This document shows positions 2,223-49,218 of a stretch of 64,000 nt of DNA, piece by piece. Source of the stretch: Oscillospiraceae bacterium (lineage in GTDB: Bacteria; Bacillota; Clostridia; Oscillospirales; CAG-272); assembly GCA_015064845.1 (NCBI GenBank), contig SVRL01000004.1:14398-78397 (forward strand), in the 5' to 3' direction. Each line of letters starts with the position of its first letter. The first letter of the stretch is position 1. The translations under genes were made by a program, and so were the position numbers. The notes beneath the pieces are model-generated. The model had not been told where the DNA came from, did not search any database, and worked only from the letters and a program-made list of their open reading frames with translations.

Positions 2223-2660
2223 TCAAATTTCGTTCCGATAATATTTACCAATCAAATCGGCAATATTTTCAGCCACTTTCCGAATTTCAAAAAGCTCGTG
2301 TTCCCAGATGTAAATTGCCGAATCGTCCGTCTTGCCGTTCGGAAGAACACGGTAACAGTAATAATCTCCGCAACCGTTCGTGGCAAAGAAAACATAACGG
2401 TCGATTTTCTCACGAAATTCATCCGGTTCCAAATATTCGGGAAAGATCTCCCGATTGGTTTTCACATGTTTTATCATTTCTGCCACGGAAAGCAACAGCC
2501 AACCGTCGCCGTTTGTTTCCCGAAAAAGCGCTTTTAAGTCTTCGGGAAATGGAAAGCCCACATACTCTTCCGCTTTGGCAATTTCATTTTCGGAGCAAGG
2601 TTCCCGTAATTTTGCCCAACGATGGTCTTGAATAAAATTCTCGAGCAATTCCCGATACAT
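2223..2660 (-). CDS. SMI1/KNR4 (SUKH-1) family protein, immunity-protein-like
   Basis: NEIAKAEEYVGFPFPEDLKALFRETNGDG, then YVFFATNGCGDYYCY and IYIWEHE, which is the typical SUKH-1 pattern. The start is placed at MYRELL because AAGGGGG lies 8 nt upstream. Confidence 0.7.
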   Translation of the reverse strand: MYRELLENFIQDHRWAKLREPCSENEIAKAEEYVGFPFPEDLKALFRETNGDGWLLLSVAEMIKHVKTNREIFPEYLEPDEFREKIDRYVFFATNGCGDYYCYRVLPNGKTDDSAIYIWEHELFEIRKVAENIADLIGKYYRNEI

Positions 2661-2709
2661 GATACAGCCCCCTTCAACATTCAATCATCTTTCGACCTTA
2701 TGACACAAA

Positions 2710-3222
2710 TTAAAATTTATCATCGTAATATCCCGCAATACCGACACCGACGGTTGCAAAATAATTCGCCCGCTTACTTTCGTATTCGATTTCATCCGAT
2801 GTCATGGGATTGCCGAAAGCGGCAGCTTCTTCGATCATCTCCGAAATCTCTTGCGGTACTGCTTCCCGATAAAGACCGATACTGATGTCAGCAAACTGAT
2901 AACAATGTCCGTTTTCCATATCGCAAATTTTTCCGTTATTTTTGGTTTTTAATATCTCAATCAACTCCTCTGCCATGATATCAAATACGGAAACACCGTA
3001 AATCCTCGGCTGATATACGCCATCCGCACCACCCAAAAATTCAATAAATTCCACTTTATTTTCATTGTAATCAATCGCCACTTCGCCGTTGCAGTAATAA
3101 TATCGGTTTCCGATTTTCCGTCCCGGTCCGATTAAAACTTCGACTTCGGATTGCGTCATTCCAAAACAAATGGCAATACCGTTTATTACGACTTTTTCCA
3201 ACGGATATATTTCTGTTTTCAT
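2710..3222 (-). CDS. Hypothetical cytoplasmic protein, possibly an immunity-type protein
   Basis: Clean ORF with AAGGAGA upstream of the GTG/ATG start. It has no TM segment or signal peptide and is in an operon with the SUKH gene. I do not recognise the family. Confidence 0.55.
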   Translation of the reverse strand: MKTEIYPLEKVVINGIAICFGMTQSEVEVLIGPGRKIGNRYYYCNGEVAIDYNENKVEFIEFLGGADGVYQPRIYGVSVFDIMAEELIEILKTKNNGKICDMENGHCYQFADISIGLYREAVPQEISEMIEEAAAFGNPMTSDEIEYESKRANYFATVGVGIAGYYDDKF

Positions 3223-3233
3223 CACTTTTCTCC

Positions 3234-3413: not shown

Positions 3414-3490
3414 ATCTTGCCCTCTCTTTTTGAAATAAAGTTATTTGTTCAGATTATATCATAAATTGAATAAAATGTAAATAACCAAAC

Positions 3491-3534
3491 AATAAAATCC
3501 CTGCGTCATGCTAAAATTCGGCAAAACGCAGGGA
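3491..3534 (-). terminator. Intrinsic terminator downstream of the serpin gene
   Basis: A 9-bp stem, TCCCTGCGT (3498-3506) with ACGCAGGGA (3526-3534), has a T-tract on the minus strand. Confidence 0.6.
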
Positions 3535-3547
3535 CAATGTATATTTT

Positions 3548-4984
3548 TTATAATTGATTGACCACACCGACGAACATAACCGAACCGTCCTCGCCTTTAA
3601 TCACAAAGATATACGGTCTGTCAACCACAAAATCAATTTCTTCATAAGTAGGTTTTATACCATCCATAGACTCCAGCATAATCACGGAATAGGACATACC
3701 CGTTACACCGTCTTCATCAATGGAAACGCGCGTACCGTGCTGCAACTCATCGACTACAACGCCCTTTCCTGTGCTCGCCTCCAACAAATGAGAAAAATCG
3801 GAATTTTCATAAGAAAAACAATCGGTCAACCCAAGATTTTTCAGATTTTCAACCAAATCCGTATCAAAAGAAACGTCAAACTTCGGAACGGAAAGATTGA
3901 CCTTCATTTTTTTACCGTTTTCATAAGTTCCGGTAGAACCAATGAAACGCCAAACATCTTCATCCTGCAAAAGCATTTCGGCCGTAACGTTTTCATCGGG
4001 CAAAATCCAGTACATACAGCCGCTTCTCTCTAAAGCTTTCACTGTTGCGGAAAAGTTTTCACCCCACCAATAATATACATTCGAGGTTGTGTTCATAAAA
4101 TCTACGGTAACATCCTTGTTTGCGCCGTGAAAAACTCCTTTTTTCGTTTTTGTTTCAGAAAACTCATCATACCATTTCGCACGAAAATAAACGGTTGTCG
4201 CAAGTCCGAGAACCGTCCTCGGATCGAAAGCAATATCATCAATCTGATCTTTCAACTGTCCGCCCGTTTGTTCGTTCAGCCATTCACGCAGAGCAAGATT
4301 CAGCTCCTCGGAGCCCATTTCTCCGCTAAAAGAAGAAGCATAATAAAATTCTGCTAAAATATCCAGTATTTCCTTTTGGTAAGCAATATCGTTATCCAAC
4401 CAAAGAGAGCTTGCTAAAATGCTCGTAACCGCACCGTCATCGTTATAATTGGCATTCCAAATACCATGCGCTTGCGTTCTCAACGCTTCAATACTTTCCG
4501 CGCCGAGCAAATTCAAAATTTGTGCGCGGGTATTGCCGTCCGAAATTTCCGCAAGCATGGCAAGCGCCATATAAAGGCTCATCGGAGAATATACGCGGTT
4601 TTCCGTTCCGTCTCCCGAAAGAATTTCGGAAGCGGTCGCACGGACAAAAGATTCCAAGCCCTTGCTTGAACCGAAATAAGCATGCTGTTTCGCTTGATCC
4701 TCATCCCAAGCTTTCCAATTCAAATCATGAGAATTCCAGCGAGTGCCGGCAGGATATTTGCTCATTTCCGGATACTGTGCAACAGAAATTGCGTGGACGG
4801 ATAAATCAACAGGACTTTGATTTCCGAAAAATATCCCCAACCCAATCGCACAAACCAAAATGGCGGCAACAGCTGCTGTGATTTTTATTTTGATTTTCCG
4901 TTTCTTTTTCATCGGTTTTTCGCTCCTTTTCAAAAGATCGGCATCGATCATACCGATCGCATTTTGCAAACGTTCGGATTTCAT
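3548..4984 (-). CDS. Membrane-anchored serpin-domain protein in the anti-sigma-factor position
   Basis: The N-terminus is MKSERLQNAIGMIDADLLKRSEK, then a Lys-rich stretch, then one TM helix (ITAAVAAILVCAIGLGIFF). The rest is a serpin core (SPMSLYMALAMLAEISDGNTRAQILNLLG, hinge/RCL DEDGVTGMSYSVIMLESMDG, DRPYIFVIK). Its start overlaps the sigma gene stop (ATGA). Confidence 0.8.
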   Translation of the reverse strand: MKSERLQNAIGMIDADLLKRSEKPMKKKRKIKIKITAAVAAILVCAIGLGIFFGNQSPVDLSVHAISVAQYPEMSKYPAGTRWNSHDLNWKAWDEDQAKQHAYFGSSKGLESFVRATASEILSGDGTENRVYSPMSLYMALAMLAEISDGNTRAQILNLLGAESIEALRTQAHGIWNANYNDDGAVTSILASSLWLDNDIAYQKEILDILAEFYYASSFSGEMGSEELNLALREWLNEQTGGQLKDQIDDIAFDPRTVLGLATTVYFRAKWYDEFSETKTKKGVFHGANKDVTVDFMNTTSNVYYWWGENFSATVKALERSGCMYWILPDENVTAEMLLQDEDVWRFIGSTGTYENGKKMKVNLSVPKFDVSFDTDLVENLKNLGLTDCFSYENSDFSHLLEASTGKGVVVDELQHGTRVSIDEDGVTGMSYSVIMLESMDGIKPTYEEIDFVVDRPYIFVIKGEDGSVMFVGVVNQL

Positions 4985-5541
4985 ATCAAAAATCCCTCAC
5001 TTTCTAAATATAAACGTAATTTTTCTCTTGTACGTTTCAGCATCATTTTCACTTTGCTTTCGCCGAAACCGTAAAGCTTCGCAATTTCGGCAACGGAACG
5101 GAAATGCCAATATCGGTGAATGAAAACAGAAGCTTCCGTTTCTGGCAAGGTGCGTAAAAAATCGGAAATTGCTCCCGCAAGCATTTTTTCTTCCATTTCT
5201 TCATCCAGACTTTTTCCGTTTGAAATACATTCTTCCAATTCATGCAAAGAAAGCGCCGTTTCTCCGCTTCCCCGTTTTTCGGCATAGTATTTACGAAATC
5301 GGTCAAGCGAGATTCTGCGTGTAATTGTCCCCAAAAATGTGGAAAACGGCTTGGGCTTTATCGGTGGAATCATATTCCATACATCCAGATACGTATCGTT
5401 TTCACATTCTTCCGCATCTTGTTCGTTCCGAAGAATGCGATATGCAACGGAATAACAATATCTTCCGTATTTTTTCTTGGTCTCCGAAATTGCTTTTTCT
5501 TGGCGCGCCCAGTATAATGCGATGATTTTTTCATCATCCAT
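4981..5541 (-). CDS. RNA polymerase sigma-70 family factor, ECF-type
   Basis: Region 2 (DAEECENDTYLDVW) and region 4 HTH (SVAEIAKLYGFGESKVKMMLKRTREKL) are present. The start is placed at MDDEKII because GGAGGTG lies 7 nt upstream. Confidence 0.85.
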   Translation of the reverse strand: MDDEKIIALYWARQEKAISETKKKYGRYCYSVAYRILRNEQDAEECENDTYLDVWNMIPPIKPKPFSTFLGTITRRISLDRFRKYYAEKRGSGETALSLHELEECISNGKSLDEEMEEKMLAGAISDFLRTLPETEASVFIHRYWHFRSVAEIAKLYGFGESKVKMMLKRTREKLRLYLESEGFLI

Positions 5542-5640
5542 GCCAATCACCTCCAAAAGCTTTGAAGCGCTTCATCTATATAATCGTAAAAAATCTCCTA
5601 AGGTCACATACTTTTATAAAATTCTGCCAATTTTTTCTAT

Positions 5641-5674
5641 AAATTAAAACAGCACCCGAAAGCACGGATGCTGT
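5641..5674 (-). terminator. Probable terminator after the small Zn-ribbon membrane protein gene
   Basis: Hairpin ACAGCA..TGCTGT (5649-5674) is followed by a T-rich run on the minus strand. Confidence 0.45.
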
Positions 5675-5685
5675 AATATCATTTA

Positions 5686-5931
5686 TTATACCGCTTTTTC
5701 ATCCTTAGACAACATACGGTCTTTACAACCGCAGTGCGGACATTTTACAAGCTTACTCTCATCACCAAAATTGATCAGAGAATTCAATGAAAAATTCGGA
5801 GAAAACCTTTTTTCGCATTTTACACAAACATACTCCTTGTTTTTAACATGAAGCATTTCTTTGATACTGATTCCAACAACAATGAAAAACGCGATAATAC
5901 CGATTGATAAAGCAATCCAAAGTCCCAACAT
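5686..5931 (-). CDS. Small membrane protein with a C-terminal CxxC...CxxC zinc ribbon
   Basis: MLGLWIALSIGIIAFFIVVGISI is a TM helix, followed by CVKCEKRF...CPHCGC. GGGAGGT precedes the ATG at 5931. Confidence 0.6.
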   Translation of the reverse strand: MLGLWIALSIGIIAFFIVVGISIKEMLHVKNKEYVCVKCEKRFSPNFSLNSLINFGDESKLVKCPHCGCKDRMLSKDEKAV

Positions 5932-6026
5932 ATCGTTTACCTCCCATATGGAATCTTTCAATTATAGTATATCATAAAAAAGATAAGAAGTAAATACTGT
6001 TGTTCCGTTTTTATGCAAAAATAACG

Positions 6027-6791
6027 TTATCTTTTTTTATACAGAACCAATTCCGGATTTTCGCCGTTTTCTTCATATGTGCAAACAAGCAAAAAATCCA
6101 TATTCGCAACGATGCCAAAGCATCTTTCACCGCCGAATTCACATTCGAGCTGACATCCGAGATACGTTGCATGATCGTCTAAAAATTTTACGGTTTTCCC
6201 ATTGGGAAGCTTATATTCCAAATTTACATAGCTTCCAATCAAGGCATTCAGACTTTCCACTTTGGGCATACCTTCAATTTGCAGAGCATTCAACTCATCC
6301 ATCAACTGATTTTTGAAAGCGTCAAACTGTTCTTCGCCGCCAATTTCAGCATATTTTTTCCAATAATTCAGTTTTGGCAACATTTCTTTCATATATTCCC
6401 TTACCTGTTCGGAAGAAAATTTTTCGTTCGCCATATGTTCCGCACAAAAATTGATCAGATCATCCATATTGTCATAAGTATATTCCCCTTCGGAATAACA
6501 CCATTTACAATATTCCTCATTAAAAATGCCGTCTTTCTCTTTGCTGATATCGGAATCTTTAAGGGGCATACCGCAACACTGACAGATCAACTGCTGCGGA
6601 GAACCCAGAAGTGTATTGATGGAAACGTCAAAAAATTTAGAAAGTAATTTCAAAGATTCCGTATTCGGAACGGTTTCACCGTTTTCCCATCTGGATACCG
6701 CTTGTCTGGTAACGTAAATTTTTTCCGCAAGTTCATCCTGCGATAATCCTCTTTTCGTTCGAAGTTCCAATATAATATCTTTTGTTGACAT
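6027..6791 (-). CDS. XRE-family HTH transcriptional regulator fused to a zinc-ribbon domain and a C-terminal domain
   Basis: LRTKRGLSQDELAEKIYVTRQAVSRWENGETVP is an HTH_3-type motif, followed by CQCCGMPL...YCKWCY (Zn ribbon). The start is taken at MSTKD. Confidence 0.8.
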   Translation of the reverse strand: MSTKDIILELRTKRGLSQDELAEKIYVTRQAVSRWENGETVPNTESLKLLSKFFDVSINTLLGSPQQLICQCCGMPLKDSDISKEKDGIFNEEYCKWCYSEGEYTYDNMDDLINFCAEHMANEKFSSEQVREYMKEMLPKLNYWKKYAEIGGEEQFDAFKNQLMDELNALQIEGMPKVESLNALIGSYVNLEYKLPNGKTVKFLDDHATYLGCQLECEFGGERCFGIVANMDFLLVCTYEENGENPELVLYKKR

Positions 6792-6854
6792 AAAAATCAC
6801 CGCCTTCCATAGACAGTATATCATAGTCTTATCAAAACCGCAAGCAACCTGCTG

Positions 6855-6892
6855 TTGCTTTCCACAGACTTTATTTTCCTATAGTATAAAAA
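6855..6892. repeat. Short, degenerate copy of the intergenic repeat, ending in TTTCCTATAGTATAAAAA
   Basis: It shares GTTGCT...TTTCCTATAGTATAAAAA with the full copy at 6912-6997 and is followed by hairpin GTGGGC/GCCCAC (6893-6907). Confidence 0.5.
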
Positions 6893-6911
6893 GTGGGCAA
6901 CGCCCACTGGA

Positions 6912-6997
6912 GGTTGCTCGCCTATCGCTGTTTTCTTGTATCCAAACAATGCAAACGGCGAGGTCGATTTTGCGCAATTTCCTATAGTATAAAAAAA
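6912..6997. repeat. Intergenic repeat, copy A (~86 nt); candidate sRNA or REP/MITE-like element
   Basis: GGTTGCTCGCCTATC...AAACAATGCAAACGGCGAGGT...TTGCGCAATTTCCTATAGTATAAAAAA recurs at 57289-57374. It has an internal CTCGCC/GGCGAG stem and is followed by hairpin CTCCG/CGGAG (6998-7016). Confidence 0.6.
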
Positions 6998-7026
6998 CTC
7001 CGAAAATCGGAGTTTTTGAAAATTTG

Positions 7027-7058
7027 ACCCCTGAATTTTGTTAGATTCAGGGGTTTTT
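7027..7058. terminator. Bidirectional terminator-like hairpin downstream of the 7097-7618 gene
   Basis: A 10-bp stem, ACCCCTGAAT with ATTCAGGGGT, is followed by TTTT on the plus strand. Confidence 0.55.
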
Positions 7059-7096
7059 CGTACCATACAATAGGAAATCACTCAAAATGTTTGAAC

Positions 7097-7618
7097 TCAG
7101 TTATTTTCGGGAATAGTCAAGGAGGCATCCGCCGTTACATTACTGTCGCCGGAATAAATTCCCCAACGAGGAGTAATGGTAACCATTGCATCTTCGGTTA
7201 CAATGATTTTAAAGGTTAATGTTTTTTCCTGAGCATCATTGTGTCGTTCAATATAATCCGTATAATATTTTTTTGCGGTAGATTCATCGGAGCCGACGGT
7301 AATGACAAGATAAGCAGAAGCACTGTCTTTGGGAAGTGTCATGGTAACCGTATACTCTCCGGAAGCCAAATTTTTTTCGAAAGGCGTATTAATATTCGCA
7401 GTTCCGATTGTTTCTTCTTTGGAAACAGATACGGAAACCAAGCATTTTTCTGCTGTTTTTATTTCATTGTGTCTGCTGGGCGCGTTATCTGAAAACCAAG
7501 CCCAAGTTGTGGAACAAAGGCAAAAAAGACACATAAGCAACCCAAAAATTGAGCTTAGCACCAGGCGTAAAAACGCCTTGTCCGTCAGCCGTTCCGTATT
7601 TTCATTTTGTTTATTCAA
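7097..7618 (-). CDS. Secreted protein with a SipW-dependent (TasA/camelysin-type) signal peptide
   Basis: The N-terminal anchor LRLVLSSIFGLLMCLFCLCS is followed by TTWAWFSD, which matches the T-x-A-x-F-[ST]-D motif of SipW-cognate signal peptides. The mature part looks beta-rich. Confidence 0.7.
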   Translation of the reverse strand: MNKQNENTERLTDKAFLRLVLSSIFGLLMCLFCLCSTTWAWFSDNAPSRHNEIKTAEKCLVSVSVSKEETIGTANINTPFEKNLASGEYTVTMTLPKDSASAYLVITVGSDESTAKKYYTDYIERHNDAQEKTLTFKIIVTEDAMVTITPRWGIYSGDSNVTADASLTIPENN

Positions 7619-9971: not shown

Positions 9972-11063
9972 ATGTTTGAAAAATTATCGGAAATTGAATC
10001 CCGTTTTGAAGAAATCGAACAACGCTTCTCCATGCCCGAAATTACGGGAAATGCGGAACGTTTTCGTGAAATGATGAAAGAACATAAAAAACTCTTTCCG
10101 ATCGTTGAAAAATTCCGTGAATATAAAAAAGCAAAAGCAATGGAAGAAGAAGCGCTGCTTTTGCTTGAAGATTCCGACGGAAATGATCCGGAAATCCACG
10201 CGCTTGCCGAAGACGAGCTTGCCGAAGCCAAAGAAAAAATTCTTTCATGTGAAAAAGAATTGCAAATACTTCTCTTACCGCGTGATCCGAATGACGATAA
10301 AAACGTCATCGTGGAAATCCGAGGCGGCGCGGGCGGCGAAGAATCTGCGCTTTTCGCGTACGATCTTTACCGAATGTATTCCATGTATGCAACTTCCTCC
10401 GGTTGGAAAACGGAACTATTGTCTTTGAATGAAACGGAACTCGGCGGCTTCAAAGAAGTTTCCTTTTCCGTGGACGGAGACGGTGCTTATTCCAAACTGA
10501 AATTTGAAAGCGGTGTCCACCGCGTACAGCGCGTTCCGCAAACGGAATCGCAAGGAAGAATCCATACCTCAACAGTAACCGTAGCCGTGCTTCCCGAAGT
10601 GGAAGATGTGGAAGTGGAGATCAATCCCGCAGACTTGGAAATCGAAACCTGTAAATCCAGCGGTGCGGGCGGACAGCACATCAACAAAACCGAATCCGCG
10701 ATTCGCATTTTGCATAAACCGAGCGGCATTGTTGTGGAATGCCAGGAAGAAAGAAGCCAATTCAAAAACCGCGATAAAGCCATGAAGCTTTTGCGCGCCA
10801 AATTATACGATATAGAAAAAACAAAACGCGACAGTGAAATTGCCGATGAACGCCGCCGCCAAGTGGGAACAGGAGACCGAAGCGAACGCATCAGAACCTA
10901 TAATTTTCCGCAAGGCAGAATAACCGACCATCGCATAGGACTCACGCTTTATACTTTGGATACCTTTATGAACGGAAGAATCGAAGCAGTCGTCAACGCT
11001 TTGATTGCCGCCGATACCGCCGCAAAACTCGGAAAAGGCTCAGAAGAAGTCTCCGCAGAATAA
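9972..11063 (+). CDS. prfA: Peptide chain release factor 1
   Basis: RVPQTESQGRIHTS (PxT tripeptide position), SSGAGGQHINKTESA (GGQ motif). RBS AAGGAGGAG. Confidence 0.95.
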   Translation: MFEKLSEIESRFEEIEQRFSMPEITGNAERFREMMKEHKKLFPIVEKFREYKKAKAMEEEALLLLEDSDGNDPEIHALAEDELAEAKEKILSCEKELQILLLPRDPNDDKNVIVEIRGGAGGEESALFAYDLYRMYSMYATSSGWKTELLSLNETELGGFKEVSFSVDGDGAYSKLKFESGVHRVQRVPQTESQGRIHTSTVTVAVLPEVEDVEVEINPADLEIETCKSSGAGGQHINKTESAIRILHKPSGIVVECQEERSQFKNRDKAMKLLRAKLYDIEKTKRDSEIADERRRQVGTGDRSERIRTYNFPQGRITDHRIGLTLYTLDTFMNGRIEAVVNALIAADTAAKLGKGSEEVSAE

Positions 11064-17346: not shown

Positions 17347-18450
17347 TTACGCTTTGCTTTTCAGATAAGCGTTGATAAAACCGTCGATTTCGCCGTCCAT
17401 AACGGCATCGATGTTACCGTCTTCATAGCCCGTACGGGTATCCTTCGCCAAAGTATAGGGCATGAATACGTAAGAACGGATCTGAGAACCCCATTCGATT
17501 CTCGTTTTTTCGCCGCGGATATCTTCAATACGGTCAAGATTTTCTCTTTCCTTGATTTCCGCAAGCTTACTTTTCAGCATACGCAATGCGGTTTCCTTAT
17601 TTTGAAGCTGGCTTCTTTCCGTCTGACAGCCGACAACAATACCTGTGGGCTTATGCACAATACGGATTGCGGAGTCGGTTTTGTTGATGTGCTGACCGCC
17701 CGCGCCGCTGGAACGGTGCGCCGTTACTTCAATATCCTCTTCACGGATTTCAATATCCACGCTGTCATCGAGTTCGGGCGTTACTTCCACGGAAGCAAAA
17801 GAAGTCTGTCTTCTGCCGGAAGCATCGAAAGGAGATACGCGGACCAAACGATGAACGCCGTGTTCGCTCTTCAGAAAGCCGTATGCGTGCGTACCTTCCA
17901 CGATAAAGGTTGCGCTTTTCAATCCCGCTTCATCGCCGTCCAGCCATTCCAGAAGTTTCACGGTAAAGCCGTGATTTTCTGCCCAACGGGTATACATACG
18001 GTAAAGCATGGAAGCCCAGTCCTGCGCTTCCGTACCGCCTGCGCCGGGATGGAAAGAAACGATGGCGTTGCAGGAGTCGTATTCGCCCGAAAGCAAGGTT
18101 TCCAAACGCATACGTTCTTCGATTTCCGTGATTCTTTCAAGCTCTGCAAGAACTTCTTCCACAACACTCTCGTCGTTTTCTTCAATGCCCATGTCTGCTA
18201 ACATAATGGCATCGTCCAAAGCAATCTGCAAATTCTCATATTCTTCTATGGTATCTTTGATTTGTTTGAGTTCTCTCAAAATTTTGCTCGAATTCGCCGC
18301 ATCATCCCAAAAGTTCGGAACCAGAGTTTTCTGCTCCAATTCTTCCGCTTCTTCGCTGATTTTTTCGATTCTCAAAGCATTTCCGAGCTCGGCGATATCG
18401 CCTTTCATTCCCTGAAGCGTTCTTTTCGCTTCTTCCAACTGAATAATCAA
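17347..18450 (-). CDS. prfB: Peptide chain release factor 2, in a single frame with no programmed +1 frameshift
   Basis: VSPFDA (SPF motif), SSGAGGQHINKTDSA (GGQ motif). The N-terminal segment homologous to other RF2 proteins (..GNALRIEKISEEAEELEQKTLVPNFWDD) is in the same frame. TTG at 18450 is preceded by GGAGGA 6 nt upstream and gives 367 aa. Confidence 0.9.
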   Translation of the reverse strand: MIIQLEEAKRTLQGMKGDIAELGNALRIEKISEEAEELEQKTLVPNFWDDAANSSKILRELKQIKDTIEEYENLQIALDDAIMLADMGIEENDESVVEEVLAELERITEIEERMRLETLLSGEYDSCNAIVSFHPGAGGTEAQDWASMLYRMYTRWAENHGFTVKLLEWLDGDEAGLKSATFIVEGTHAYGFLKSEHGVHRLVRVSPFDASGRRQTSFASVEVTPELDDSVDIEIREEDIEVTAHRSSGAGGQHINKTDSAIRIVHKPTGIVVGCQTERSQLQNKETALRMLKSKLAEIKERENLDRIEDIRGEKTRIEWGSQIRSYVFMPYTLAKDTRTGYEDGNIDAVMDGEIDGFINAYLKSKA

Positions 18451-18561
18451 TGTTTGTCCTCCGATTTCTGCTGTATCATCAAAGCATTCCGCTCGGGAAT
18501 ACTTCTTTTTACTGTTTTCCTCATGCAAACGGATCGATTTGCAATCCGCCTTCATATGTTT

Positions 18562-42092: not shown

Positions 42093-43247
42093 TTAATATC
42101 TCTTTTTATGATTCAAAATATTCATGATATCATCGACGTTGCGGGAAGGAACGAGAGTTTCCGCAGTGTCCTGACCACGGAACTGATTCATGTTCTGTGT
42201 TTCGGTGGTCTGTGCATAAGCTTTGTATGCGCTGAATGTATCGGTAGCGACAGGAGCACTCTTCTTTGTATCCTGGAAACCGGTTGCGATAACGGTAACC
42301 TTAATGGTATCGTCAAGCTTTTCGTCGAAAGCCAAGCCCCAGATGATCGTTGCTTCGGGGTGAGCTTCGTTGGAAACCATTGCGGAGGCTGTTTCAACTT
42401 CATCAAGGCTGATGTCGGGAGAAGCCGTGATGTTGATCAAAATACCGGTAGCGCCGGAAATAGAGGTTTCAAGCAGAGGGCTGGATACAGCCATTCTTGC
42501 AGCGATTTCAGCTTTGTCTTTGCCTTTGCCTTCGCCGATACCCATGTGAGCATAGCCCGCATCCTTCATAACGGAGGAAACGTCAGCAAAGTCAAGGTTA
42601 ACGATACCGTGGCTGCTGATCAAATCGGAAATACTCTGAACACCGTGGCGGAGAACGTCGTCGGCATAAACGAAAGCGTTGAGAAGTGTGATCTTGTTTT
42701 CAGAGATCTGTTTAAGTCTTTCATTGGGGATAACAAGCAAAGAGTCTACGTACTGGCGGAGATTTGCAATACCTGCTTCTGCCTGAATCATACGTTTTCT
42801 GCCTTCAAAGGAGAAAGGCTTCGTAACGATACCGATGGTCAGAATGCCCATTTCTTTTGCGAGCTTTGCAACAACGGGAGCCGCACCCGTACCTGTACCG
42901 CCGCCCATACCGGTTGTGATGAACACCATATGTGCTCCGCTAAGGATCTGCTTGAGATCGTCAACGTTTTCTTCGGCAGCCTGCTTACCAACCTCGGGAT
43001 TGGAACCTGCACCGTGGCCGTTTGTGATTCTTTCGCCAATGATAACTTTTGTTTTTGCATTGGATGCGGTAAGAGCCTGTCTGTCGCAGTTTACGGTAAT
43101 AAATTCAACGCCGCGGATGTTGGAGTCCAACATTCTGTTTACGGCGTTTCCACCGCCACCGCCCACACCGATAACTTTGATTTTTACACCGCTGTCATAG
43201 TATGCTTCGGTTTCAGTGGTTTCTGAAGTGTATCCAAATAAATCCAT
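42093..43247 (-). CDS. ftsZ: Cell division protein FtsZ
   Basis: [28 protein letters not shown]. Confidence 0.97.
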
Positions 43248-43422
43248 TTTTATATTCCTCCTAAAATAATGAACTTGATAAACATATACAATACCATTGT
43301 AATCTTTTTTTTCGAAATTTGCAATATGTTTTTTGAAATTTTATGAGGAAAAATCAAAATATTTTTTAAAAAACAGAGTTAAAAACAGAATTATTGACAA
43401 AATATGTAAAAATTATTTTCTG

Positions 43423-44220
43423 TCAAGCAACACCCGTAATTTCAAAAGTCACTTTTTCCGCCGTCCACGCATAAAGCGTTCCTGTAATACTTGCCATATT
43501 TTCGGTCAGGTAGACGACAGCTTCTTCGCAAAGATCGAGCTTTTCTTCCAAATCTTTTTTATTGCCGAACTTGATGGTATAGCGACCGTCCACCACCGCA
43601 GTCAGGTTCGCTTCTTCATCCAGATACAGTTTGGTAAAAGACTCAAACAAACTGCTTTCGGAAAGCGTTTTCATTAAAAGCGGAATCGTTTCTTTGTCAG
43701 CCTTTTCAAGAAAAACGATTTTTTTCCCGATTCCAAATTGTTTCTCATCCGTATCAATATCGGGCAAACGTAATTCAGCCGCTTCGATATCCAAAAGTTC
43801 CGAGTCGGAAATTTCTTCCAGAATCAAAAGCGAATCGGAAACCAGATAATATTTTTCATCGATCTTCACGTAAAAATCCGCAGTATATTCTACCGATTCA
43901 ATGATGATCTCCGAAGGAAATTTTCTCTTCACACTCACGGATTTGATATACGGACTGAGTGAAAGAACGGAAGATTCCGCTTTTTTCACATTGACGGAGA
44001 AAATATGGCGGTTTAACGGAATATCTGCCGCCGCAAGAATCTCATCTGCCGTCATTTTTTGATTATAAAGAACAGAAATCGTTTTCACTCGGAAAAAGAA
44101 AAGAAAAGAAAACGCAATGGAAAGCGCCGCCGCGCTCATAAAGAAAACGATTAAAAATTTTCGGCGCAGTATCTTCCCCGGAGAAGATTGAATCGTTTTT
44201 GTTTTTTTCTTTTGTTTCAT
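43423..44220 (-). CDS. ftsQ: FtsQ/DivIB-type cell division protein (POTRA domain)
   Basis: N-terminal TM helix and a POTRA-like segment (ISVLYNQKMTADEILAAADIPLNRHIF). It lies between murG and ftsZ. Confidence 0.8.
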   Translation of the reverse strand: MKQKKKTKTIQSSPGKILRRKFLIVFFMSAAALSIAFSFLFFFRVKTISVLYNQKMTADEILAAADIPLNRHIFSVNVKKAESSVLSLSPYIKSVSVKRKFPSEIIIESVEYTADFYVKIDEKYYLVSDSLLILEEISDSELLDIEAAELRLPDIDTDEKQFGIGKKIVFLEKADKETIPLLMKTLSESSLFESFTKLYLDEEANLTAVVDGRYTIKFGNKKDLEEKLDLCEEAVVYLTENMASITGTLYAWTAEKVTFEITGVA

Positions 44221-44343
44221 GAATGCCTTCCTCTTGCCATGGCACGGCTTTTATTTTTCAGTTTTTCCTTTTGCCGTATACAAGAAAATCACAGCTCCGT
44301 ATATACGGCAATGAAAGGACAAACTATTTCCGTTTTCAAACAT

Positions 44344-45462
44344 TCAGACTTCTTTTTGAGAAAGCAAAAGAAGATCTTCGTAAATATCAACGGCGGCATT
44401 GGGCTTTGCAAACGCTTGAATGGCGTGACTCAGAGCGACGCGCGCTTTTTCGTCATTCAAAATCTTGTTCACGCTTTCCGCAAGTATGCCGGGGGTCAGA
44501 TTTTTCTCTTCATGCAAAACGGCGGCACCGGCATCGGCAAGGCGTTTTGCATTTTCATATTGATGATTGTTTGCCACGTTGGGAGAAGGAATCAAAATAC
44601 AAGCCTTTCCGAGAAGTGCCATTTCCGCAATGGTCATCGCGCCCGCGCGGCAGATCACAAGATCGGCTACTTTTTCCCAAAGGGGCATATCGTAAATATA
44701 TTCCAGCAAACGAATATTGGGTTTATCTGTCAAACCGTATTCGGCAGCCTTTGCCATCGCCGCTTCATATTCGATTCTTCCCGTTGCATGAATGTGGAAA
44801 ATGTCGGGACGGTGCGCAATTTCATCGCGCATAAGAGCAAGGATTTCTTCGTTGACTCGCTCGGCACCCAAGCTTCCGCCAAAGGAAAGAAGGATTTTTT
44901 TCACGTTTTTCGGAATACCGAGCTTTTCCCGTAAACCCGCTTCCGCTTTTGTATCGGGAAGCGTAATCAAAGGATTGCCAACGCAAAGAACCTTTTCTTT
45001 CGCCTCAAACGCTTCCTCTGTCGTCGGAAAATTGATATAAATACGATCAACTTCCTTTTCCAGCATTTTGACGGCTTTACCGGGAATCGCATTGGATTCA
45101 TGGATGGCAGTCGGAATGCCGAGTTTGGCAGCGGCGTGAATTAGCGGCCAGGAAAGATAACCGCCCGTTCCCACAACAACGTCGGGCTGATAATCCAGAA
45201 GTAATTTTTTCGCTTTGATGGGTGCCGTAAAATAATAATATGCGGTTTTGATATTGGAAAGAGAAAGACTGCGGCGCAATCCGCGCATTTCAATATGATA
45301 AAGCGGATAACCTGCCTTACCGACAAGATTGTTCTCCATTCCCTTTTTCGTTCCGATAAACGCAATCTGCGCTTCCGGATCGTTTGCTTTGACTGTGTTG
45401 GCGATGGCAATGGCAGGATTGATATGACCGCCCGTTCCGCCGCCCGCAAGGAGAATTTTCAT
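44344..45462 (-). CDS. murG: UDP-N-acetylglucosamine--N-acetylmuramyl-(pentapeptide) pyrophosphoryl-undecaprenol N-acetylglucosamine transferase
   Basis: KILLAGGGTGGHINPAIA, VVGTGGYLSWP, CRAGAMT. Confidence 0.95.
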   Translation of the reverse strand: MKILLAGGGTGGHINPAIAIANTVKANDPEAQIAFIGTKKGMENNLVGKAGYPLYHIEMRGLRRSLSLSNIKTAYYYFTAPIKAKKLLLDYQPDVVVGTGGYLSWPLIHAAAKLGIPTAIHESNAIPGKAVKMLEKEVDRIYINFPTTEEAFEAKEKVLCVGNPLITLPDTKAEAGLREKLGIPKNVKKILLSFGGSLGAERVNEEILALMRDEIAHRPDIFHIHATGRIEYEAAMAKAAEYGLTDKPNIRLLEYIYDMPLWEKVADLVICRAGAMTIAEMALLGKACILIPSPNVANNHQYENAKRLADAGAAVLHEEKNLTPGILAESVNKILNDEKARVALSHAIQAFAKPNAAVDIYEDLLLLSQKEV

Positions 45463-45504
45463 GATGATGGATTCCTTTCTGAAAAATTGTATGAGTGATA
45501 GAAA

Positions 45505-46749
45505 TTACTGTTGAAAACCGGTTCTTTCTCCCGAAGAGAAACGGGAAATGGAAAGAATGATACCCATTTCCGCAAGCTGCATGACAAGCGCCGTACCGCC
45601 GTAACTGAAAAACGGAAGCGCTATACCCGTCGTGGGAATGGTTGTAGTAACTACGGCAATATTCAAAACCGCCTGAATCCCGACTTTCAAAGTCAGTCCC
45701 ATCACAACGAGAGCGGAAAACGTATCCGGCGCTTTGGTGGAAATCAAAAATCCCCTCCAGATCAGAAGCAAAAACAGCGTAATCAAAACCATCGCGCCGA
45801 CAAATCCCAATTCTTCGCAAACGATGGCAAAAATGAAGTCGTTTTGCGGTTCGGGAAGCCAAAGGTGCTTTTGATAACTGTTCCCCAGACCAACGCCGAA
45901 GAAACCGCCTGAACCAATGGCAAGCAGACTCTGATACGGCTGCCAAGCACCTCCCGTAGTATCGTTTTCGGGATGTAGCCATGCATCCACGCGCGCCTTC
46001 GTATAATCCGTAAAAAGCACAAGCCCCGCTGCCGCAGCAGCGAAAGAAGCACCAATACCGCCAACCCAACGCATATCCGCACCTGCAATAAAAATCATGC
46101 CGGCGCCGATGATAAAGAGAATGATCGTCGCGGACATATGCTTTTCCAACGCAACCGTTCCGCAAACCAGAACGACAATACAAGCGGGAGCCAGAATGCC
46201 GTATTTGAAGGTTTTGGTTTTTCGCTCAAATTTGGATATGTAAAGCGCCATCATCAGCACGAGCGCAAATTTCATAACGTCCGAGGGCTGAAACTGCACG
46301 ATCTTAAAGTCAACCCAACGGGTTGCACCCTTATTCGTTACGCCAATCCCCGGAATAAAAACGCATAGCAAAAGCAGATAACTGACTGCAAAGATGGCAG
46401 GCGTGGCTTTTTTCAGAAATCCGTAGTCCACGACAGACATGACGAGCATGGCAATAATTCCGATCGTTGCCCAAAGCAATTGTTTTTTGATAAAATAGAA
46501 GCTGTCTCCCATTTCCGAAAGTGAAAAAACGTAACTTGCGGAAGCAACCATGATCGAACCGTAACAAGTAAGAAGAACGACGATAATGAAAAACGGTCTG
46601 TCAACGCCTCCGCGGATACGGTAAACCGTTGAACGGTCGGGAGAAAGCAAAGTATTTAAAACCTCAAGAAAGAGGTTCTGTTTCGGTTGGGGAATCGGTT
46701 GTCTGACGGGGTGATTTTCGGTATTTTGATGTTTTGTCACATTGGGCAT
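45505..46749 (-). CDS. ftsW: SEDS-family peptidoglycan polymerase FtsW/SpoVE
   Basis: Ten-TM-like profile, QPSDVMKFALV, LPFFSYGGTA. Confidence 0.9.
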   Translation of the reverse strand: MPNVTKHQNTENHPVRQPIPQPKQNLFLEVLNTLLSPDRSTVYRIRGGVDRPFFIIVVLLTCYGSIMVASASYVFSLSEMGDSFYFIKKQLLWATIGIIAMLVMSVVDYGFLKKATPAIFAVSYLLLLCVFIPGIGVTNKGATRWVDFKIVQFQPSDVMKFALVLMMALYISKFERKTKTFKYGILAPACIVVLVCGTVALEKHMSATIILFIIGAGMIFIAGADMRWVGGIGASFAAAAAGLVLFTDYTKARVDAWLHPENDTTGGAWQPYQSLLAIGSGGFFGVGLGNSYQKHLWLPEPQNDFIFAIVCEELGFVGAMVLITLFLLLIWRGFLISTKAPDTFSALVVMGLTLKVGIQAVLNIAVVTTTIPTTGIALPFFSYGGTALVMQLAEMGIILSISRFSSGERTGFQQ

Positions 46750-46767
46750 AAACGCACCTCTTTTCGT

Positions 46768-47754
46768 TTAAATGGACAAACAATACATGACTGCGCACAA
46801 AACGGCGGTAATTGCACCTGCAACGAAAACGATTTTACGTTCGCTCCAGCCGCATTTTTCAAAGTGATGGTGAATGGGCGCCATTTTGAAAATTCTTTTT
46901 TTGAAAAGCTTATAGGAACCGACCTGCAAAATAACGGAAACGGTTTCAATGATATAAATGAGTCCCACGATCAGAATCAAAATGGGATTGTCACAAAGGA
47001 AAGCAAGTCCCGTAACCATGCCGCCGAGGAAGAGAGAACCCGTGTCTCCCATAAAAATTCTTGCGGGATTCCAGTTGTAAACAAGAAAACCTATCATACC
47101 GCCGCAAAGCGCGCCCGCAAAACAAACGACCGCATCGGCGAAAGCAAGACTCATGACGGTAAATCCGAAAAGCGCAAAGAAAGCGGAGATCACTGCCGTA
47201 ACGGAAGCACAAAGTCCGTCAATACCGTCCGTGAGATTGACACTGTTATCCACGCCTACAATGAGGATGACTGCAAGCGGATAAAACGCAATGCCGAGGT
47301 CCCATTCGATTTCCGTAAAAGGAATCGGAATCACGGTATCCATATAGCCGAGCGAACACATCATACCAACATAGAGAGAAGCAACAACAAGCTGCAACAA
47401 AAATTTCTGATACGCTTTTAATCCCTCATTTTGCTTTTTGATCAGTTTCGCATAATCATCCACCATTCCGACAGCGGCAAAAAGCGTTGCCATTGCAAGG
47501 GTAATCCAAAGGGGTACCAGCATTTCTTTGCTGACAGCAAAGAACGAAAGCACTGCCATAGTCAGCAAAATGGCGATAATAAAGAAAATTCCTCCCATCG
47601 TCGGCGTTCCCGCTTTGGATTTATGCCAACGCGGACCAATCTCGTAAATCGGCTGATTCATTTTTTTGCTGATCAGCACGGGGATATACTTTTTAGACAA
47701 CAGTACGGTAACGGCAAAAGACAGCAGTACCGAGAGAATGAAAAAAATGAGCAT
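46768..47754 (-). CDS. mraY: Phospho-N-acetylmuramoyl-pentapeptide transferase
   Basis: GMVDDYAKL, NLTDGIDGL, MGDTGSLFLGG, PIHHHFE. Confidence 0.96.
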   Translation of the reverse strand: MLIFFILSVLLSFAVTVLLSKKYIPVLISKKMNQPIYEIGPRWHKSKAGTPTMGGIFFIIAILLTMAVLSFFAVSKEMLVPLWITLAMATLFAAVGMVDDYAKLIKKQNEGLKAYQKFLLQLVVASLYVGMMCSLGYMDTVIPIPFTEIEWDLGIAFYPLAVILIVGVDNSVNLTDGIDGLCASVTAVISAFFALFGFTVMSLAFADAVVCFAGALCGGMIGFLVYNWNPARIFMGDTGSLFLGGMVTGLAFLCDNPILILIVGLIYIIETVSVILQVGSYKLFKKRIFKMAPIHHHFEKCGWSERKIVFVAGAITAVLCAVMYCLSI

Positions 47755-47814
47755 GGCAATTCCTTTCTGTTATGCATCGATAAATTTTATTTTTCTTTAC
47801 GGTTTGATGCCGGA

Positions 47815-49218
47815 TCAAAGCAATCGGATCAGCCGTTCGAGCGCAACGGCACGGCTTGCTTTGAAAAGAACGGCATCCCCCTCTTGCAAAACGGTTTTCA
47901 AGAGGCATACGGCGTTTTCCGCGTTCTCCGTATCTTCAATCGTAAAAACGTTTTCCGCGGGCATACCGGCTTCTTTTGCGCCTTCAGCAATATTGCTTGC
48001 CGATTTTCCGAACGTAATCAGTTTTTGAACGCCGACCCCTGCCGCATAAGCACCGACTGTTTTATGCGCCCCGTCGGATATGCTTCCCAATTCGCGCATA
48101 TCCCCAAGAACGGCAACGGGACGGCATTTTTTTGTGGTTGCCGTATGCAGAAGCACGTCTAATCCTGCGCGCATGGATTCGGGGCTTGCGTTATAGCAGT
48201 CTTCAATCACGATCATACCGTTTTTTTCCGAAATGGATTGGCGCATATCTGCGGAAACGAATTCCAGAAGTCCCTTGCGGATATTTTCCTCGGAAACACC
48301 GAGAAGCAACCCGCACACCGCGCCGATCAGCGCGTTATATATATTGTGCTTGCCAATGGCATTTATACGCACGTCGCTAAGAAAATCCTGTCCGTGGAAA
48401 GCGATATCAAAAAGCATTCCGTCCTCTTGCGTGCGGATATTTCTTGCGGAATACGCCGCATTTTCATTCTCGATTCCGATATATATTTTCGTTAAACCCT
48501 CGGCAGGAAGATCTGAGAGAAGCGGTTCATCGCCGTTCAAAATCAGAATTCCGCCTTTTCTCATTCCTTCTCTGATCTCCGCTTTAGCATCGCGGATGCC
48601 TTCACGTGAACCGAGATTTTCCAAATGTGCGCTTCCGATATTGGTAATAACGGCAATATCGGGTTCGGCAAGATGGGAAAGATAAGCGATCTCCCCCTTG
48701 TGATTCATCCCCATTTCCAAAAGAAGCGCACGATGGGCGGCATGGAGATCCAACATCGTCAAAGGCAATCCGATTTCATTGTTAAAATTGCCTTTCGTAA
48801 CGTTCGTCGGGTATTGCGTGCTCAAAACGGAATAAATAAATTGCTTCGTTGTGGTTTTTCCAACGCTTCCCGTAACGGCAAGCGTAATGGGATGGAACAT
48901 TTTTTTATAAGCGCGCGCAAACAATCCCAGCGCTTTCGTCGTATCGTTCACAAGAATGCACGGAAGCATACAGTTTTCCGGAACATATTCGGCAACGGCA
49001 AACACACAGCCCGCTTTTTGCGCAGCTTCCATGAAACGGTGTCCGTCAAAATTCTCTCCGCGGAGAGCAAAAAACACTTCTCCCTGTTTCGCCGTACGAG
49101 AATCGGTGGAAATCCCGTAGGCAAGCGGCAGAGATTCTGTCAGAGCGGGCGCAATGCCCTCGGTAAATTTTGCAAAGGTTTGAATATCCAAACCGTTTTT
49201 TTCTAAACTGAAATACAT
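47815..49218 (-). CDS. murF: UDP-N-acetylmuramoyl-tripeptide--D-alanyl-D-alanine ligase
   Basis: AVTGSVGKTTTK, LEMGMNHKGEI, IEDCYNASP. Confidence 0.94.
   Translation of the reverse strand: MYFSLEKNGLDIQTFAKFTEGIAPALTESLPLAYGISTDSRTAKQGEVFFALRGENFDGHRFMEAAQKAGCVFAVAEYVPENCMLPCILVNDTTKALGLFARAYKKMFHPITLAVTGSVGKTTTKQFIYSVLSTQYPTNVTKGNFNNEIGLPLTMLDLHAAHRALLLEMGMNHKGEIAYLSHLAEPDIAVITNIGSAHLENLGSREGIRDAKAEIREGMRKGGILILNGDEPLLSDLPAEGLTKIYIGIENENAAYSARNIRTQEDGMLFDIAFHGQDFLSDVRINAIGKHNIYNALIGAVCGLLLGVSEENIRKGLLEFVSADMRQSISEKNGMIVIEDCYNASPESMRAGLDVLLHTATTKKCRPVAVLGDMRELGSISDGAHKTVGAYAAGVGVQKLITFGKSASNIAEGAKEAGMPAENVFTIEDTENAENAVCLLKTVLQEGDAVLFKASRAVALERLIRLL

Follow-up and report, generated by a model that had tools for sequence, protein, structure and literature searches.

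A pair of overlapping genes encoding an extracytoplasmic function (ECF)-type sigma factor and a membrane-anchored serpin was found in a 64-kb stretch of DNA from a gut Clostridia bacterium (the window; positions are numbered along its full length). The sigma gene and the serpin gene are both on the minus strand and bicistronic, with a promoter ahead and a terminator behind, and the module measures about 2.1 kb with promoter and terminator counted in. Its features, together with the terminator of the gene upstream, are listed here with the basis of each call in brackets.

5649..5674, minus strand: intrinsic terminator of the upstream gene (10-bp stem with 6 GC pairs, then TTTTAATTTAT)
5579..5608, minus strand: ECF-type promoter (conserved motif and position weight matrix [PWM] score)
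4981..5541, minus strand: sigma gene, ECF-type sigma-70 family, 186 aa (Pfam, TIGR02937, SigW structure match)
4981..4984, minus strand: ATGA overlap of sigma stop and serpin start, translational coupling (open reading frame [ORF] coordinates; overlap conserved in relatives)
4984..3548, minus strand: serpin gene, 478 aa (ORF listing)
4916..4984, minus strand: cytoplasmic head, residues 1-23, MKSERLQNAIGMIDADLLKRSEK, putative anti-sigma domain (conservation, co-occurrence, AlphaFold2 [AF2])
4883..4915, minus strand: Lys/Arg-rich stretch, residues 24-34, PMKKKRKIKIK (K/R count)
4826..4882, minus strand: single transmembrane (TM) helix, residues 35-53, N-in/C-out (Kyte-Doolittle 2.61; AF2 helix 34-52)
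4634..4825, minus strand: juxtamembrane extension, residues 54-117 (column statistics; AF2 predicted local distance difference test [pLDDT] 68-88)
3551..4633, minus strand: serpin core, residues 118-478 (PF00079 E=1.2e-57)
3641..3715, minus strand: hinge and reactive-center loop (RCL), residues 424-448 (P17 E424; predicted P1-P1' Met440-Asp441)
3486..3535, minus strand: intrinsic terminator 3' of the serpin stop codon (hairpin -24.4 kcal/mol, z=-4.7, then UUUUAUUGUUU)

The sigma gene starts at the ATG at 5541, 8 nt after a ribosome-binding site (RBS; GGAGG at 5554-5550), and an alternative start, a TTG at 5556, was offered by the ORF listing. An earlier interpretation made from the letters alone (the sequence-only reading) had described an ATGA overlap between the sigma stop and the next start, and this was confirmed at 4984..4981 on the minus strand. 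The module terminator is present only behind the serpin gene, and the promoter, the overlapping genes, and the terminator therefore make up a compact bicistronic operon. Expression of the serpin from its own promoter, which the same reading had raised as an argument against coupling, finds no place in this layout: there is no independent promoter gap between the two genes, and in the 23 loci compared below the overlap is 4 nt in 21 and 14 nt in the other 2. The terminator at 5649..5674 belongs to the zinc-ribbon membrane protein gene at 5961..5686, and the module is thus insulated against read-through.

Sigma70 regions 2 and 4, which the sequence-only reading had expected in the upstream gene product, were both found by Pfam (Sigma70_r2 at residues 24-84 and r4_2 at residues 124-175), together with Sigma70_ECF. 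The 186-aa protein holds sigma-2 and sigma-4 domains only, with no r3 or r1 match in Pfam, and it matched NCBIfam TIGR02937 with 78.3 bits (cutoff 42.9), while no equivalog-level NCBIfam model scored above its cutoff. The closest solved structure was SigW (5wuq, E=7.6e-9). By these domain matches, the window sigma is a member of the ECF (group 4) sigma-70 factors. It was also observed that two sigma residues, C46 and C105, are conserved cysteines in EEC-like motifs (DAEEC.ND and ELE.C), the C46 motif being nearly family-wide, paralogues included; the pair might form a redox or metal site.

The serpin protein consists of five parts, namely, the head, the Lys/Arg stretch, the TM helix, the extension, and the serpin core. 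Nine of the 15 residues before the TM helix are Lys or Arg and none of the 15 after it, and across 120 homologues the means were 6.3 before and 0.6 after; this bias implies an N-in/C-out orientation, i.e., a cytoplasmic head and an external serpin. The short cytoplasmic N-terminus, the Lys-rich stretch, and the one TM helix named in the sequence-only reading were all present, and the topology check that it had suggested gave a predicted TM helix, oriented N-in/C-out by charge bias. A mis-called longer signal peptide was rejected as an explanation for the N-terminus, since the head is conserved from Met1 in >100 clusters. In the AF2 model, which was built on a 56-sequence alignment (pLDDT 81.8), the head forms two short helices that meet at Gly11 (residues 4-10 and 15-21), the TM segment is helical, the juxtamembrane extension is confidently structured, and the fold is that of a standard serpin; residues 436-448 had a pLDDT of <50 (disordered). 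The extension carries the motif P58..[V/A]63-x-A65..A69-x-Y71-P72-x-M-x-x-Y77-P78..W93, with AXA-type candidate signal-peptidase sites ([V/A]63-x-A65, A69) about 12-16 residues past the TM helix. By analogy, the AXA motif may serve as a cleavage site; the juxtamembrane motif is retained in lipoprotein serpins too, so it may be structural.

The window protein is a member of the serpin family. PF00079 matched with 196 bits (cutoff 27), sequence matches of the core to conserpin and tengpin were found at about 1e-33, and all Foldseek hits were serpins, headed by tengpin, PAI-1, and conserpin, with target TM-scores that ranged up to 0.85-0.86 (tengpin and other serpins, E=2.6e-28 and target TM-score 0.85). 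The complete serpin fold claimed from the letters therefore stood, although its proposed span did not: the PF00079 match covers residues 118-476 rather than ~90-478. Both motifs quoted in support of that claim are present, DEDGVTGMSYSVIMLESMDG at residues 423-442 and DRPYIFVIK at residues 455-463. In contrast to the core, residues 1-117 gave no Pfam or NCBIfam hit, and Pfam found no DUF4179 on the protein; a recognizable anti-sigma domain of the defined classes (class I/ZAS, RskA, FecR, DUF4179, and others) was thus not detected.

We compared the window with 22 further loci encoding a head-bearing serpin, a neighborhood survey that the sequence-only reading had proposed for serpin homologues. 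A sigma gene (184-189 aa) lay directly upstream in 23/23 head-bearing loci, whereas it was upstream of 0/7 related serpins without a head. Flanking genes varied between the sigma-serpin loci, showing that only the sigma-serpin pair is conserved. The seven headless serpins comprised five lipoproteins (four from one close clade), one further lipobox form, and one with a TM/bare signal anchor, and they were scattered in at least four separate places among their head-bearing relatives, i.e., in independent lineages. One loss could be followed at a single locus, recognizable in two genomes (L047 and L050) by its Flavin_Reduct and Gly_transporter neighbors and by serpin cores that are 79% identical. 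L050 (7104-8100) has kept sigma and head, while in L047 (2724-3100) one deletion runs from just past the sigma ATG to the end of the head. What remains in L047 is the old sigma RBS and ATG fused to MVKNKLKI-TM-serpin, behind a decayed -35 element. A separate observation concerns an Oscillospiraceae metagenome-assembled genome (MAG; L015), which has tandem serpin genes at 4832-6235 and 6416-7519, the first being a lipoprotein form without a sigma gene.

The pairing was seen again in dozens of genomes and is not a chance arrangement, and the whole architecture is kept in >118 clusters (90% identity). The head, with the consensus MKS[DE]KLQ[DN]AIGM[IV]DxDL[VI]xR[AS]EK, equals the serpin core in conservation (top-residue frequency 0.73 versus 0.70), and its divergence follows that of the sigma factor: over 23 pairs, distances correlated with r=0.84 between sigma and head and with r=0.65 between sigma and core, and the partial Mantel r of 0.75 was reached in 0/2000 permutations. 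No match to the head residues was found in Pfam, NCBIfam, or the PDB. A head profile run against PDB sequences returned engineered OspA repeats only, which were rejected as spurious.

The same head was also found on proteins that are not serpins. Paralogous sigmas (41-48% identity) were located on 13 IMG/VR contigs and on three large secondary replicons, of Lachnospira eligens, Monoglobus pectinilyticus, and Vescimonas fastidiosa. In 16/16 intact paralogous loci, the sigma gene is followed by a gene whose product joins the head, through a basic stretch and a TM helix, to an unrelated ectodomain 176-463 aa long (DUF4367, weak sub-threshold DUF4179 hits, or unknown), with the ATGA overlap in 15/16. 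When a head hidden Markov model (HMM) built from serpin proteins only was run over 1820 reading frames, these partners came out highest (best E=4e-4), and no head was detected in any other frame. Eighteen heads align gap-free from the initiator Met, and in 10 paralogous partners neither Pfam nor NCBIfam gave a match for the head. This paralogous family (L024-L036 on IMG/VR contigs; L039, 5001-6250; L040, 5001-6286; L041, 4992-6232) has its own regular build, with a 184-190-aa sigma, ATGA, a head of the form [LF]xxA[ILM][GS]x[ILV]Dxx[YL][IV]xEA, the basic stretch, the TM helix, and the variable ectodomain. Its partner proteins are hypothetical in RefSeq, and it spans Clostridia, prophage-like contigs, and megaplasmids.

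A second type of head, M[NEK]RY[KI]KA..GIH[AV]P..LK.K (MNRYKKANEGIHAPDKLKK...), unrelated to the first, was present in three serpin clusters. In 2/2 loci (P0125 and P0225), the second head, TM helix, and serpin follow a 155-157-aa ECF sigma with a 4-nt overlap; in the third cluster (P0211), the contig was too short upstream to show a sigma gene. The two second-lineage sigmas are 67% identical to each other and resemble the window sigma in region 4 only. Their loci are as follows.

L052, 636-2554: second-lineage sigma/head-serpin locus
L054, 2537-4455: second-lineage sigma/head-serpin locus

A scan of 1.84 billion cluster representatives yielded 1498 relatives of the serpin at E<=1e-30. Among the best 150 of these 1498, about 100-110 (~70%) have head and TM helix, 21 a lipobox, and 12 a simple signal or anchor sequence; a few have N-termini of other kinds, one of them dockerin-like. 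From these sequences, most members of this serpin clade in gut and rumen Clostridia appear to be of the sigma-coupled form, with carriers in Flavonifractor, Ca. Fimenecus, Ruminococcus, and Oscillospiraceae and Lachnospiraceae MAGs. The unusual forms include a serpin with a dockerin-like repeat (P0231), which is probably cellulosomal, an 822-aa protein with ~410 extra N-terminal residues (P0171), and 570-578-aa forms with an extra domain (P0139/P0164).

Together, the synteny, the losses, the modularity, the second lineage, and the co-divergence indicated that head and sigma are acquired and lost as one and form a functional unit to which the serpin is attached as an interchangeable ectodomain, a pattern to be expected of a sigma/anti-sigma system. 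The serpin protein thus very likely acts as an anti-sigma factor, a reading that draws on sequence comparison. The placement of a serpin in the anti-sigma position, as the sequence-only reading had put it, held up as an architecture that is conserved and under selection, on the grounds of co-occurrence, the modular head, the second lineage, topology, and overlap. It could be argued that the two genes are merely co-transcribed and that the head serves membrane insertion, localization, or some other partner, with no part in sigma regulation; no known anti-sigma domain resembles the head, which is very short and whose binding to sigma is deduced from sequence patterns. Such an arrangement has little probability, given that head and sigma co-occur perfectly across at least four independent losses, one of them an exact joint deletion, that among the 1820 frames the head was found only directly downstream of sigma paralogues, that head and sigma diverge together, and that the second head type has a sigma of its own.

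The promoter consists of a -35 element, TGTGACC (5608-5602), a 15-nt spacer, a -10-like CGAT (5586-5583), and TATA (5582-5579), followed by a conserved element that reads AGATGAAGCG in the window and AGGTGAAAGG at most loci. The general motif is TGTGACC-N15-CG[AT][CT]-TATATAGGTGAAAGG, with a TGTAACC variant in Flavonifractor, and it was present upstream of sigma in every sigma-serpin locus inspected that had upstream sequence. The window promoter scored ~40 bits with the PWM, while no other site in the 64-kb window reached 16 bits, and in 365 kb of related loci every score of >30 bits lay upstream of sigma, including those at four loci outside the training set. Searching the 64-kb window for a regulon (exact/2-mismatch pattern and PWM) returned the autoregulatory site only, and a looser regular-expression search gave noise only. 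The paralogous modules carry analogous promoter motifs with altered -35 and -10 letters. This pattern is the usual signature of ECF autoregulation, and the promoter is predicted to depend on the sigma; within the limited sequence scanned, it suggests that the main target of the sigma is its own operon. An 18-bit weak match was also seen in L049 (315-377), ~60 nt before the start of a headless lipobox serpin without an upstream sigma gene, where it could be a relic or allow control in trans.

Whether the ectodomain is an inhibitor or a bait bears on what the module could sense. From P17 Glu424, the window hinge reads E-D-G-V-T-G-M-S-Y-S, so that the GMSY pointed out in the sequence-only reading does occupy P12-P9 when P17 is set at E424. 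That reading had taken the bulky residues to indicate a substrate-like sensor, a view that closer inspection of the hinge did not support. In loop-inserted serpins, the even hinge positions point into the protein, and in the window these are small (P14 V, P12 G, P10 S, P8 S), while the bulky P11 M and P9 Y are at outward-facing odd positions. Compared with the consensus for inhibitory hinges, the window protein deviates at P11 M and P9 Y and agrees at P17 E, P15 G, P14 V, P12 G, P10 S, and P8 S. The consensus of 121 relatives, E-E-G-V-T-A-A-A-Y-T, is canonical except for P9 Tyr, and the shutter His416, P17 Glu424, and the s1C/s4B motifs are conserved. The distal RCL is hypervariable and the most variable part of the protein (110 distinct strings in 121 sequences), in contrast to the conserved hinge; at the predicted P1, most of the family has Ala, Ser, Gly, or Thr, and the window has Met440. 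AF2 modeled P15-P7 as an inserted strand, and the best structural matches were latent or cleaved, i.e., loop-inserted, serpins, so by the model the hinge can be accommodated in sheet A. AF2 tends to favor the relaxed serpin state, however, and the insertion is for that reason no proof of inhibition.

On balance, the serpin domain looks inhibitory-type rather than substrate-like, as judged from sequence and model. A non-inhibitory bait, in which a cut in the loop would start anti-sigma degradation without trapping the protease, would suit the P11 Met and P9 Tyr of the window clade, where classical inhibitors have Ala, Gly, or Ser, and the longer P' side of the loop. Its probability is nevertheless very small, considering the V, G, S, and S at the buried P14, P12, P10, and P8, the AAA at P12-P10 in most of the family, the conserved P17 E, P15 G, and shutter His, and the AF2 hinge insertion with latent or cleaved inhibitory serpins as the nearest folds. 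Furthermore, active inhibition is reported for related gut bacterial serpins (siropin, PMC5127057; PMC13376542).

With a probability of about 0.58, we interpret the locus as an autoregulated module of an ECF sigma and a single-pass anti-sigma factor whose tethered, inhibitory-type serpin ectodomain senses its own consumption and is replenished in response. The two-helix, 23-aa head would sequester the sigma at the membrane. An exogenous serine protease, either from the host (pancreatic or neutrophil) or from a competitor, would attack the RCL, and the serpin would be consumed as a suicide inhibitor or its ectodomain clipped. The altered ectodomain would then permit a site-1 cut near the conserved juxtamembrane AXA motif, followed by a site-2 intramembrane cleavage that frees the head-sigma complex, and the freed sigma would transcribe its own operon and replace the used-up serpin on the surface. 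Overall, this would amount to a protease shield that senses its own consumption and replenishes itself. Since each serpin molecule can inhibit only once, a coupling of use to resynthesis would be economical.

A narrower version of this proposal, which is possible but which we hold only tentatively, treats the serpin as a suicide-substrate receptor, in which covalent capture and the stressed-to-relaxed transition, not clipping, would expose the juxtamembrane site. Each trapped protease would then free one sigma and order one replacement inhibitor. If true, this would be the first serpin loop insertion in bacterial transmembrane signaling, and the protein would work as a stoichiometric surface protease counter.

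The same sigma/anti-sigma pair could also be genuine while the serpin is cargo. Another envelope signal (membrane or cell-wall stress, a PrsW-like or signal-peptidase site-1 event, or unfolding) would in that case free the sigma, and the serpin would be a constitutive surface inhibitor that is raised under stress. The survival of headless lipoprotein and signal-anchored relatives indicates that the function of the ectodomain needs no sigma, the same head/sigma chassis bears many unrelated ectodomains, and no sequence feature ties RCL cleavage to degradation, all of which would sit well with cargo. We nonetheless consider it unlikely, since the ectodomains of characterized single-pass anti-sigma factors are usually the input domain (e.g., RsiV, PMC6066255), since the recruitment of serpins into two sigma/head lineages is easier to explain if the serpin is the input, and since the sole detectable promoter target is the operon itself, which fits a loop closed on the serpin.

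Several points weigh against the consumption-sensing module. At ~23 residues, the head is shorter than classical anti-sigma domains and has no recognizable relative among the solved or curated ones, and the proposed binding of head to sigma is deduced from co-occurrence, modularity, and co-divergence, the last of which could come partly from physical linkage (a shared recombination history) and not from contact. Nothing in the sequence itself links attack on the RCL to anti-sigma degradation. The P9 Tyr is nearly invariant in the family and the P' side of the loop exceeds that of classical inhibitors by 4-6 residues, which makes inhibitory behavior less than certain. In the AF2 model, the juxtamembrane strand stays docked even in the loop-inserted state. 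In a monoderm cell, the ectodomain is accessible only to a protease that has passed through the wall. Finally, the scan for promoter sites in this genome covers 64 kb.

The closest mechanistic analogue of the proposed module is SigV-RsiV (Bacillus subtilis, Enterococcus, and C. difficile), which, like RsiP, likewise combines an ECF sigma with a single-pass anti-sigma factor that has a short cytoplasmic segment. The RsiV ectodomain engages a host defense hydrolase: it binds lysozyme, upon which a signal-peptidase site just outside the membrane is unmasked and intramembrane proteolysis follows (PMC6066255). That site resembles the AXA-type motifs found in the window family 12-16 residues past the TM helix. 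The ectodomain of RsiV, however, is no serpin and its binding is non-covalent, whereas the window protein has no DUF4179, its head and sigma are of other lineages, and its trigger would be a protease, possibly captured covalently. In the SigE-RseA-DegS/RseP system of E. coli, regulated intramembrane proteolysis is likewise started on the outside, when an extracytoplasmic serine protease acts on the RseA ectodomain. RseA, however, simply serves as the substrate of an endogenous protease dedicated to it, while the window ectodomain is itself of the protease-inhibitor type.

The SigI-RsgI and Sig24C-Rsi24C systems of cellulolytic clostridia have a conserved N-terminal anti-sigma segment, one TM helix, and swappable sensors, with multiple paralogous pairs per genome. 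These systems and the window module are thus alike in joining a modular anti-sigma segment and a TM helix to interchangeable ectodomains, and they differ in that the clostridial sensors are carbohydrate-binding or glycoside-hydrolase modules, SigI is not a canonical ECF sigma factor, and the head sequences are unrelated. With regard to serpins, Alvarez-Martin is said to have found in 2012 that the serpin operon of Bifidobacterium breve/longum is protease-inducible through a two-component system. It would likewise be an autoregulated, protease-induced serpin of a gut commensal; there, however, a separate histidine kinase senses and the serpin is a separate protein, while in the window one polypeptide plus an ECF sigma is proposed to do both. 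Tengpin, the siropins, miropin, and BL0108 (secreted, lipoprotein, or cellulosomal) share the serpin fold and the inhibitory-type hinge with the window protein, and tengpin, which carries a functional N-terminal extension, is among its closest solved structures. In the literature searched, no secreted, lipoprotein, or cellulosomal serpin has been described with a cytoplasmic head or a coupled sigma.

The sequence-only reading knew of no earlier description of the architecture, and we likewise found none in the literature searched: a full-text search for serpin with sigma, anti-sigma, or regulated intramembrane proteolysis gave no paper on it. A gut-serpin review (PMC8201313) contains none of the terms looked for in it, sigma and transmembrane among them, an ECF reclassification paper (PMC7826278) mentions SigI-like factors and leaves serpins unmentioned, and a serpin phylogeny paper (PMC8233489) recognizes membrane-anchored prokaryotic serpins as a class with no sigma link. 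The locus would represent a sigma/anti-sigma pair of the ECF kind whose input domain is without precedent and whose head is of a type not yet annotated.

If these serpins are anti-sigma factors, many uncultured Clostridia would directly detect and neutralize host or competitor proteases, and serpin expression in vivo would read out proteolytic pressure. Proteases of the gut lumen, among them pancreatic and neutrophil elastase and trypsin-like enzymes, influence the makeup of the microbiota and reach elevated levels in inflammatory bowel disease, and bacterial serpins are being pursued as therapeutics. The module suggests an undescribed bacterial route for sensing and answering attacking proteases, with a new ECF input domain that has a built-in irreversible conformational switch and a very short, unannotated, putative anti-sigma head that occurs widely across Clostridia, prophage-like contigs, and megaplasmids. 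Being compact and apparently self-contained, it should be easy to test and could possibly be reused as a protease biosensor.

The genomic setting is that of a core chromosome. The neighbors of the module include ribosomal proteins S9 and L13, two PCRF/RF-1 release-factor genes (9972-11063, plus strand, and 17347-18555, minus strand), and the dcw cell-division cluster (ftsZ, murG, ftsW, and a Mur ligase; 42093-49218, minus strand), and a mobile-element setting was rejected on these grounds. No M50 (site-2) peptidase was found in a scan of ten of the other window ORFs of 372-478 aa, which are housekeeping genes. Just upstream of the module lie an HTH_3 and Zn_ribbon_2 regulator (6027-6824, minus strand) and the small zinc-ribbon membrane protein (5686-5961, minus strand), with the terminator between these genes and the module. 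Directly downstream, a protein of the SMI1/KNR4 (SUKH-1) family is encoded at 2223-2684 (minus strand), flanked by genes for small proteins without a Pfam match (2710-3225 and 1738-2202, both minus strand); SUKH proteins are often immunity proteins.

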